Shown one piece after another: positions 5,506 to 6,981 of a stretch of DNA of 24,000 nucleotides. Location: assembly GCA_030148805.1 (NCBI GenBank), contig JASBSS010000030.1:18258-42257 (forward strand), read 5' to 3'. The DNA is from Thiogranum sp. (GTDB lineage: Bacteria; Pseudomonadota; Gammaproteobacteria; DSM-19610). The number at the start of each line of letters is the position of its first letter. Within the stretch, counting starts at the first letter, position 1. The translations under genes were made by a program, and so were the position numbers. The notes beneath the pieces were generated by a model. The model was not told the DNA's origin. It made no database searches and saw only the letters and a program-made list of their open reading frames with translations.

Positions 5506-6981
5506 ATGGAAAAACGCCAACAGTTCTCGATCTGGTATTTCATCGCCGTCTTCCTGTTGATCATGGCGGTACAGAACGACCTGTACGGCCGGCACACCGA
5601 AACCCTGTCTTACGACAACTTCAAGATCATGCTCAAGGCCGGAAAGCTGACTGACGTCGCAATCGGTGAGAGGACCCTGAGGGGCGGATTGATCAATGAA
5701 GGATTGGAGGAACTGCTGCCGAAGGAAAAGCTCAATGAACTGCGCAAATCCGGCGATGGACCGCACCGCTTCGTCACTGTGCGGGTAGACGATCCGGATC
5801 TGATCAAGGAGCTGGAAGCCGCCAAGGTGCGTTTCGCCGGCGTGATCGAGAGCAACTGGTTTCGCACGTTGCTGTCGTGGGTGCTGCCGGCGGTTGTTTT
5901 CGTCGGCATCTGGATGTTGCTGATGAAACGCATGGGTGCGGCGGGCGGTATGCTCGAGATCGGCAAGAGCAAGGCCAAGATCTATGTGGAGAAGGACACG
6001 CGGGCGTCTTTCAACGACGTCGCCGGCGTGGACAAGGCCAAGGAGGAACTGGAAGAAGTCGTCACCTTCCTGAAGGAACCCGGGCGCTTCGACCGTCAGG
6101 TGTTGGTGGACCGGCCCGACAAGATCGGCCGGATGCAAATCCTGCAGGTACATCTCAAGAAGGTCATGCTCGCGCCCGGCGTCGACGTGGAGCAGATCGT
6201 GGCGCTCACGCCCGGCTTCTCCGGCGCCGACCTCGCTAACCTGATCAACGAGGCGGCGCTGCTCGCCACTCGCCGAGGCGCCGAGGGCGTGGCGCTCGAC
6301 GATTTCACCCGTGCCGTCGAACGCATCGTCGCCGGTCTGGAGAAAAAGAACCGTCTGCTCAATCCCAAGGAACGCGAGGTGGTGGCGCATCACGAGATGG
6401 GGCATGCGCTGGTGGCCATGGCGCTGCCCGGCACGGACCCGGTACACAAGGTCTCCATCATCCCGCGCGGCATCGGCGCCCTGGGCTATACCATCCAGCG
6501 CCCGACCGAGGACCGCTTTCTCATGACCCGCGAGGAACTGGAAAACAAGATGGCGGTGCTGCTCGGCGGCCGGGCGGCTGAGCAAATTGTGTTCGGCCAT
6601 CTGTCCACCGGCGCCGCCGACGATCTCGCCAAGGCAACTGACATTGCGCGCAGCATGGTGATGCGGTACGGCATGGACGAGAAGCTCGGTCATGTGGCGC
6701 TGGAGTCCAGCCGCCCGGCGTTCCTGGACCTGCCCGGCGCCTTTCCGCCCGTGCGCGAATACAGCGAGGCGACTGCGCACGAGGTCGATTGCGCCGTGCG
6801 CGCCATCGTGCAGGCGGCGTTCGAGCGGGCTGTACAGTTGCTCACCGAGCGGCGCGACACACTCGACCGCGGCGCACGGCAGTTACTCGCCCAAGAGACA
6901 CTGAGCGGGGAGGACGTGCAGACCTTGCTGCAAGCACCGCTGCCTGCAGCAGCCGCCAAACCGGAAGGAGGATTCTCATGA
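5506..6981 (+). CDS. FtsH-family zinc metalloprotease paralog lacking the AAA+ ATPase core (in-frame internal deletion; possibly a pseudogene)
   Basis: ATG at 5506 follows GAGGGA at 5493-5498. The 491-aa product has TM1 [16 protein letters not shown], a periplasmic segment and TM2 [19 protein letters not shown]. It then reads [68 protein letters not shown] (AAA lid), followed by HHEMGHALV (HExxH) and [18 protein letters not shown] (M41 peptidase). No GPPGTGKT, DExD or pore-loop FVG is present in any frame. Confidence 0.8.
   Translation: [491 protein letters not shown]

Follow-up and report, generated by a model that had tools for sequence, protein, structure and literature searches.

In FtsH proteases, an ATPase ring unfolds protein substrates and threads them into an M41 protease chamber, and it is established that delivery of substrates to this chamber needs the ATPase ring (PMC9020784). 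Here we describe an FtsH paralog from which the entire ATPase core is missing. Its gene occupies positions 5506-6981 on the plus strand of a 24,000-nucleotide (nt) stretch of a Thiogranum sp. contig (JASBSS010000030.1), and this whole stretch is referred to below as the window. Canonical FtsH (model TIGR01241; structures 7tdo, 2ce7 and 7vhp) has in common with the short form a two-transmembrane (two-TM) anchor, a periplasmic domain, an AAA lid and an M41 domain with the HEXXH motif, and the solved chains are strongly similar to it on both sides of the gap (best E-value 4.9e-95). The difference is that the short form lacks the alpha/beta ATPase core altogether. In our reading, the gene is an accessory FtsH paralog of a stress island whose present allele lost its function recently, and the description that fits it best is that of a pseudogene at an early stage; we give this reading a probability of roughly 0.7.

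Several described systems resemble this locus in context or in logic. Intact accessory paralogs (including P0002 at locus L011; P0014 at locus L098, from a Candidatus Tenderia-like genome) are preceded by a DUF5676 gene, as in the window, and also have an aldolase or P-type ATPase, NhaA and a beta-CASP RNase nearby; they differ in being 613-642 amino acids (aa) long and in carrying the full AAA core. Likewise, FtsH2 of P. aeruginosa clone C, PaFtsH2, and plasmid-borne ftsH are second copies in a stress or accessory island and not in the housekeeping context, but PaFtsH2 has kept all its ATPase motifs (PMC10850787). In B. cenocepacia, the low-oxygen-activated lxa locus contains an ‘ATP-dependent Zn protease’, BCAM0309, which is induced 130-fold, together with acetate kinase, a cation-transporting ATPase, a metal-dependent RNase, ABC transporters and cytochrome c (PMC3721108). 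When Pfam annotation was set against the lxa gene list, a similar gene mix was seen in the islands of the window (1342-21327), L001 and L098, a likeness by gene content. Relatives of the gene were also detected on 591 plasmids, and each of the best 15 among these matches covers about 1.8 kb as two pieces and hence includes the core.

Two further systems have lost one of the two activities of an AAA+ protease. LonC keeps an AAA-like fold. It is reported to belong with Lon-like proteases without ATP-powered unfolding (PMC3391209), which makes LonC the nearest analogue in logic, whereas in the short FtsH the fold itself has been deleted. Plant FtsHi subunits have lost one activity too, but there it is the protease site and not the ATPase (PMC9020784). 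In contrast to both, the short FtsH is confined to one near-identical sequence cluster. Our literature searches on ATPase-less FtsH or ATP-independent M41 activity gave no direct precedent in the library searched, and we did not find this domain architecture described; most probably it is an early decay product of an accessory FtsH and not a new protein family.

The features of the gene, all on the plus strand, are as follows.

5506-6981, plus strand: open reading frame (ORF) of the short ftsH paralog, 491 aa plus stop, with an N-terminus identical to that of intact orthologs in the alignment.
5530-5832, plus strand: TM helix 1 (residues 9-27) followed by the periplasmic FtsH_ext domain (residues 9-109; Pfam PF06480), which AlphaFold2 models as a helix at 9-27 and a confident beta/alpha domain.
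5854-5931, plus strand: TM helix 2 (residues 117-142), modelled by AlphaFold2 as a helix at 117-142 and aligned with TM2 of intact orthologs.
5932-6081, plus strand: N-terminal leftover of the AAA large subdomain (residues 143-192), which carries E177K and is predicted to be disordered.
6080-6086, plus strand: deletion junction, CCGGGCG, the sole remaining copy of a 7-nt in-register direct repeat that brackets a 408-nt segment in intact orthologs.
6082-6354, plus strand: C-terminal AAA leftover, consisting of the last core strand (GRFDRQVLV) and the AAA lid (Pfam AAA_lid_3 at residues 226-267, 6181-6306).
6355-6927, plus strand: complete Peptidase_M41 domain (residues 284-474; Pfam 3.3e-63, profile positions 2-191 of 191).
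6391-6405, plus strand: intact HEMGH zinc-binding and catalytic motif (residues 296-300), from translation and alignment.
6978-6981, plus strand: ATGA overlap between the ftsH stop (TGA) and the start (ATG) of the class-I fructose-bisphosphate aldolase gene (6978-8039).

A first-pass annotation, made from the sequence alone, had described the gene as an FtsH paralog that lost its AAA core through a clean in-frame deletion, with both TM helices, the AAA lid, the zinc site, the M41 body and the overlap with the downstream aldolase intact. This description was confirmed, with corrections to the size of the loss and to the repeat. A Pfam search of the 491-aa product matched Peptidase_M41 (PF01434) over the full profile and FtsH_ext at a score exactly on the cut-off, and did not detect the AAA core, PF00004. 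The two-TM anchor is colinear with that of intact orthologs, and HEMGH is invariant in the homolog alignment. With phmmer, the solved FtsH structures gave two separate matches, one placing query residues 94-197 on T. maritima FtsH 84-191 and the other placing residues ~188-476 on ~319-605. The short form scored 432.5 against the NCBIfam FtsH model TIGR01241, below its cut-off of 600, while the intact ortholog P0002 passed with 767.5; the intact ortholog nevertheless fails the E. coli-type model PRK10733 (553 vs 1008). For annotators this is a warning, as the ORF resembles a complete ‘FtsH-family’ gene yet lies below the curated cut-off for the family.

Alignment with nine homologs revealed one clean gap in the short FtsH. 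Locus L011 encodes P0002, the closest intact ortholog, which is 627 aa long and has the same gene neighbourhood; relative to its DNA the short gene lacks exactly 408 nt, or 136 codons, where about 140 residues had first been estimated. The lost residues include ...MFVGVG...IIFIDELD...TNRPEILDPALLRA and also hold TNRPEILDPALLR; Walker A, the pore loop, Walker B and the second region of homology, with sensor 1 and the arginine-finger region, all fall within the lost stretch, and both Walker motifs are thus truly missing. Relocation of the core elsewhere in the window was considered and rejected, as tblastn with the 136 deleted residues returned noise only (E 1.3 or worse). Nor is the gap pattern due to chance, since the protein outside the gap shares 84-87% identity with intact orthologs and has changes at just 4 of 163 highly conserved columns.

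The breakpoints could be placed within a few bases. In L011 the left site reads GAG CCC GGG CGG TAC and the right site CGC GCC GGG CGC TTC, and the window junction reads GAA CCC GGG CGC TTC. Because the base preceding the shared CCGGGCG (6080-6086) is of the left type and the base following it is of the right type, the crossover lies inside these 7 nt. Deletion between short direct repeats had been proposed at the outset, and such a repeat exists; it is not of the proposed PGRF type, as in intact relatives the left site is EPGRY and the right site RAGRF, the repeat encodes Gly-Arg, and only these two residues are common to both sites. The left site (P-x-x-Y) varies across the 57 intact relatives that were scored, with Gly-Arg confined to the closest subclade. 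The 7-nt CCGGGCG repeat was found in L011 and L013 alone; L043 has a different 7-nt in-register repeat, GGGCGCT, and in the other 54 loci the repeat is 2-6 nt. The repeat would have measured up to 9 nt if the direct ancestor had CGC as its left Arg codon, as many relatives do. We think that the deletion probably arose by replication slippage or by microhomology-mediated illegitimate recombination. As the loss is a multiple of three, both the frame and the coupling to the downstream aldolase were retained.

The same junction recurs in independent data. At least 16 contigs, belonging to at least eight accession series, carry the short gene. They come from ENA, NCBI metagenome-assembled genome (MAG) and Logan assemblies of different runs and were built by different assemblers (SPAdes, MEGAHIT and Logan), and the junction is identical in all of them. 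A 7-nt repeat is far below any assembler k-mer, which rules out k-mer collapse and, with the recurring junction, an assembly artefact. Seven 491-aa variants, one of them the exact window protein, group into a single cluster at 90% identity, all members being at least 99% identical, and the cluster representative alone is found on 11 contigs.

Outside this cluster the ATPase core is retained. A protein search returned the 120 best matches from 5.8 billion proteins, among which only the short cluster is short, the other 119 being 601-656 aa long with PF00004. The next-best match is 87% identical over shared columns, with no closer intact protein among the matches listed, and the short form is 78-87% identical to intact orthologs over these columns. 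A scan of GTDB species representatives gave 80 loci, and no short form was present among the loci inspected (68 full-length ORFs and seven resolved exceptions). The closest representatives are ~71-77% identical, and the relatives belong to MAGs of uncultured Gammaproteobacteria, Burkholderiales and Acidiferrobacterales. Consequently, motor-less architecture was not found across divergent lineages, either among the proteins listed or among the GTDB loci inspected, but in one near-clonal cluster only, and this absence from distant genomes favours a recent deletion over a new protein family. An intact allele of the same lineage was not found either, as an exact scan of the metagenome collection with the 56-nt left flank gave one contig, already known to be short. 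The deletion appears to be fixed in one narrow environmental lineage and absent elsewhere.

The seven exceptions, GTDB loci that looked short (query residues 128-48x), were rejected as short forms because each is an ordinary FtsH gene interrupted by the end of its contig. The break is at or shortly after Walker A in six of them and at Walker B in one, L053, and the alignment of these loci to residues 128-187 is a spurious extension. Separately, we observed that in L012, L018, L032, L036, L057 and L059 contigs of unrelated species break at or just after the Walker A of this paralog; the stretch is likely to be nearly identical between the FtsH copies of one genome, breaking the assembly graph.

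We then considered what the product would look like. AlphaFold2, run with a 60-sequence alignment, gave a mean predicted local distance difference test (pLDDT) score of 70. The TM helices, the periplasmic domain, the lid (206-283) and M41 were predicted with reasonable confidence, and residues 143-201, which comprise ATPase leftovers and the junction, were predicted to be disordered (pLDDT 28-44). If made, the modelled protein would thus be a membrane anchor followed by ~60 disordered residues, an orphan lid and a catalytically competent-looking M41 domain.

The substitutions in the short gene bear on its age. The short FtsH departs from 4 of the 163 columns conserved at 95% or more, while intact homologs average 2.2 departures and 16 of the 68 have at least four. 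As this count is within the range of intact homologs, the deletion is recent, and the same count led us to reject an old, diverging family in long-term degeneration. Nine changes are unique to the lineage, and most of them are conservative.

Selection since the deletion was assessed by comparing the window with a widespread sister haplotype, which is present as identical DNA in ten contigs. Their ftsH copies differ at four positions, all nonsynonymous (A232V, E249D, V316I and S402I), giving 4 nonsynonymous (N) to 0 synonymous (S) changes, against 66N:178S in the neighbouring genes of the same sequence pair (Fisher p = 0.006). Clade statistics were computed with and without a suspect cluster of T>G calls. 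All clade variants together gave 13N:2S (p = 6e-6 vs neighbours), and 9N:1S remained when the suspect calls were left out (p = 9e-5 vs neighbours); both ratios are compatible with neutrality (binomial p about 0.25-0.32). Changes at conserved residues fall in what remains of the ATPase: E177K, which all short forms carry, V215A, A232V and E249D lie at positions conserved in 66-68 of the 68 intact homologs (residue 177 is Glu in 68 of 68), and all four are within the ATPase leftovers. The post-deletion changes in the C-terminal AAA leftover are A232V in the window and E249D and V215A in sister strains. We infer from these sequence comparisons that ftsH has probably been evolving without detectable purifying selection since the deletion.

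The suspect changes, E421G, V431G, I434S and V435G, are common to L095 and L096 and were rejected as real variants, being probable sequencing or assembly errors. The cluster lies at 6239-6281 of L095 and 2533-2575 of L096, both of which are low-coverage ENA contigs, and mismatches are densely packed at the end of the L096 contig (3-200), roughly half of them being T>G. It was also observed that codon 402 (6709-6711) is unusually variable, with three alleles in the short-form clade (Ser, Ile and Leu) and Asn in the closest intact ortholog.

The gene lies within an island, in which the following features surround it.

1342-11550, plus strand: tight run of same-strand genes for acetate kinase, phosphoketolase, DUF5676, FtsH, aldolase, HMA P-type ATPase and NhaA.
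5234-5491, plus strand: gene for a two-TM DUF5676 protein, 14 nt upstream of ftsH.

Four-nucleotide overlaps join three pairs in this run, ftsH/fba (6978-6981), fba/ATPase (8036-8039) and ATPase/nhaA (10387-10390). Beyond the run are genes for cytochrome c, transporters and a YHS protein, with a fatty-acid cis/trans isomerase and an ABC1 kinase on the opposite strand; Pfam gave no match for the long ORFs at 15311-16495 (plus strand) and 22197-23982 (minus strand), of 394, 190/267 and 253 aa. The islands of the intact orthologs have a P-type ATPase, NhaA, a beta-CASP RNase and YHS proteins in common, and from this context we infer that the short FtsH is an accessory stress-island paralog and not the housekeeping FtsH. 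In the close intact relatives checked, DUF5676 is the conserved immediate upstream neighbour, 4-14 nt from the paralog (at 2272-2544 in L011 and 9553-9996 in L098, and also in L013 and L030). Its product may be a dedicated partner, adaptor or substrate of the FtsH paralog. A scan for FNR/Anr boxes showed nothing near the operon.

Erosion of this island is under way in the short-form lineage. A deletion of 7 nt in the sister haplotype, corresponding to window positions 4688-4694, splits phosphoketolase into ORFs of 706 and 96 aa (11 recovered contigs; the equivalent position in L001 is 3776-4066); the window copy is intact. The HMA P-type ATPase has been reduced by rearrangement to a 150-aa stub in L001 (7049-7501), L003-L005, L095 and L096. 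In these stub contigs homology with the window stops at ~8465, about 430 nt into the gene, and is followed by a beta-CASP RNase, an RND adaptor and an ABC transporter, while L002 retains the gene arrangement of the window. Across 1130-15274, the window and L002 show mosaic divergence, with long stretches of 0-4 differences per 500 nt and divergent patches (4000-4500, 7500-9000, 12500-14000 and beyond 15000) of 12-52 differences per 500 nt, which suggests recombination imports; the short ftsH sits within a low-divergence block. As a separate observation, the haplotypes differ by an 18-nt indel at window 5131-5148, in the spacer or small-ORF region between phosphoketolase and DUF5676, where a 52-aa ORF is called in the sister contigs.

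Our model for the origin of the allele is as follows. A single deletion between the in-register CCGGGCG repeats (...EPGRY... and ...RAGRF...) would have excised exactly 408 nt and with them Walker A, the pore loop, Walker B, sensor 1 and the arginine finger. The motorless product would be unable to unfold or translocate substrates, a loss of function that is expected from the established mechanism of FtsH. The frame would have stayed open through the in-frame nature of the loss and the little time elapsed, and selection on operon coupling may have kept it open for a while. The substitution pattern, the narrow distribution and the decay of neighbouring genes together point to evolution as a pseudogene. 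The first-pass annotation had left the choice between a fresh pseudogene, kept open by chance or coupling, and an ATPase-less protease; the evidence leans to the former.

Several observations weigh against pseudogene evolution. All M41 catalytic residues are intact, and no stop or frameshift was found in the 1476 nt of any recovered copy, although recovery by protein identity would miss broken copies. Since the short allele occurs in two haplotypes and with no fewer than two flanking arrangements, it is more than a one-off lesion, and its apparent fixation points the same way. When ftsH is compared with the low-divergence neighbours only (6N:6S), the excess of nonsynonymous changes gives p = 0.115, in a test of low power, and sequencing errors may account for some singleton variants, which come from low-coverage contigs. 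The robust M41 changes, at positions 316 and 402, are at variable positions, and the protease could still be constrained.

A first alternative explanation is that the gene encodes a working, membrane-tethered M41 protease without ATPase, either as a ring that cleaves unfolded or short peptides without ATP or as a subunit that modulates or poisons housekeeping FtsH hexamers. The open frame in every recovered copy (with recovery biased to intact ORFs), the apparent fixation of the allele, and the retention of HEMGH and nearly all conserved M41 columns would all fit such a protein, as would the predicted folding of the TM anchor, lid and M41 domain and the clustering of conserved-site changes in the ATPase leftovers while the robust M41 substitutions fall at variable sites. 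LonC (PMC3391209) offers a precedent for an AAA+-derived protease without ATP-powered unfolding. We nevertheless consider this explanation rather unlikely. The architecture is limited to one cluster of at least 99% identity, with the AAA core retained in the other relatives listed; a synonymous excess is absent (4N:0S in the robust set, 13N:2S overall); adjacent island genes are inactivated in the same lineage; and delivery of substrates to the M41 chamber of FtsH needs the ATPase ring (PMC9020784). The literature searches likewise gave no report of an ATPase-less FtsH. Nothing positive supports a working motor-less protease, and its stronger version, in which such a protein is fixed and maintained in a widely sampled environmental lineage as an ATP-independent peptidase or as a motor-less subunit that tunes hetero-hexamers, is unlikely.

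A second explanation is that the product is useless and that selection keeps the frame because translation of ftsH drives the coupled expression of the aldolase, the P-type ATPase and NhaA. The three ATGA-type 4-nt overlaps are consistent with this, as are the sigma-70 promoter scan, in which no convincing internal promoter was seen in 900-8200, and the aldolase, which is intact in all contigs reaching it. On present data, however, selection for coupling is indistinguishable from a simple lack of time, and the downstream P-type ATPase is truncated in several strains, so that downstream expression is not obviously protected. As a separate cause, coupling is thus doubtful; retention of the frame only through its coupling to the aldolase is a possibility that is compatible with an early-stage pseudogene. 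Finally, assembly collapse, or a minority variant in a mixed population dominated by the intact allele, is highly improbable: FtsH paralogs do break metagenome assemblies, as the seven GTDB contigs ending in the Walker A/B region illustrate, but the 7-nt repeat is far too short for assembler k-mers, different runs assembled with SPAdes, MEGAHIT and Logan yielded at least 16 contigs with the identical junction, and neither an intact allele with the left flank of this lineage in the metagenome collection nor an intact protein above 87% identity among the matches listed was seen.

An active product would make this the first natural FtsH to have a protease without a motor, a natural separation-of-function variant. 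It would then offer a ready-made test of what an M41 ring does by itself at the membrane and show whether FtsH hexamers can take in subunits that lack a motor. On present evidence, the locus is mainly a clean, well-replicated case in which a 7-nt in-register repeat has excised a whole domain in frame, and it also exemplifies the first stage in the decay of an accessory stress-island gene.

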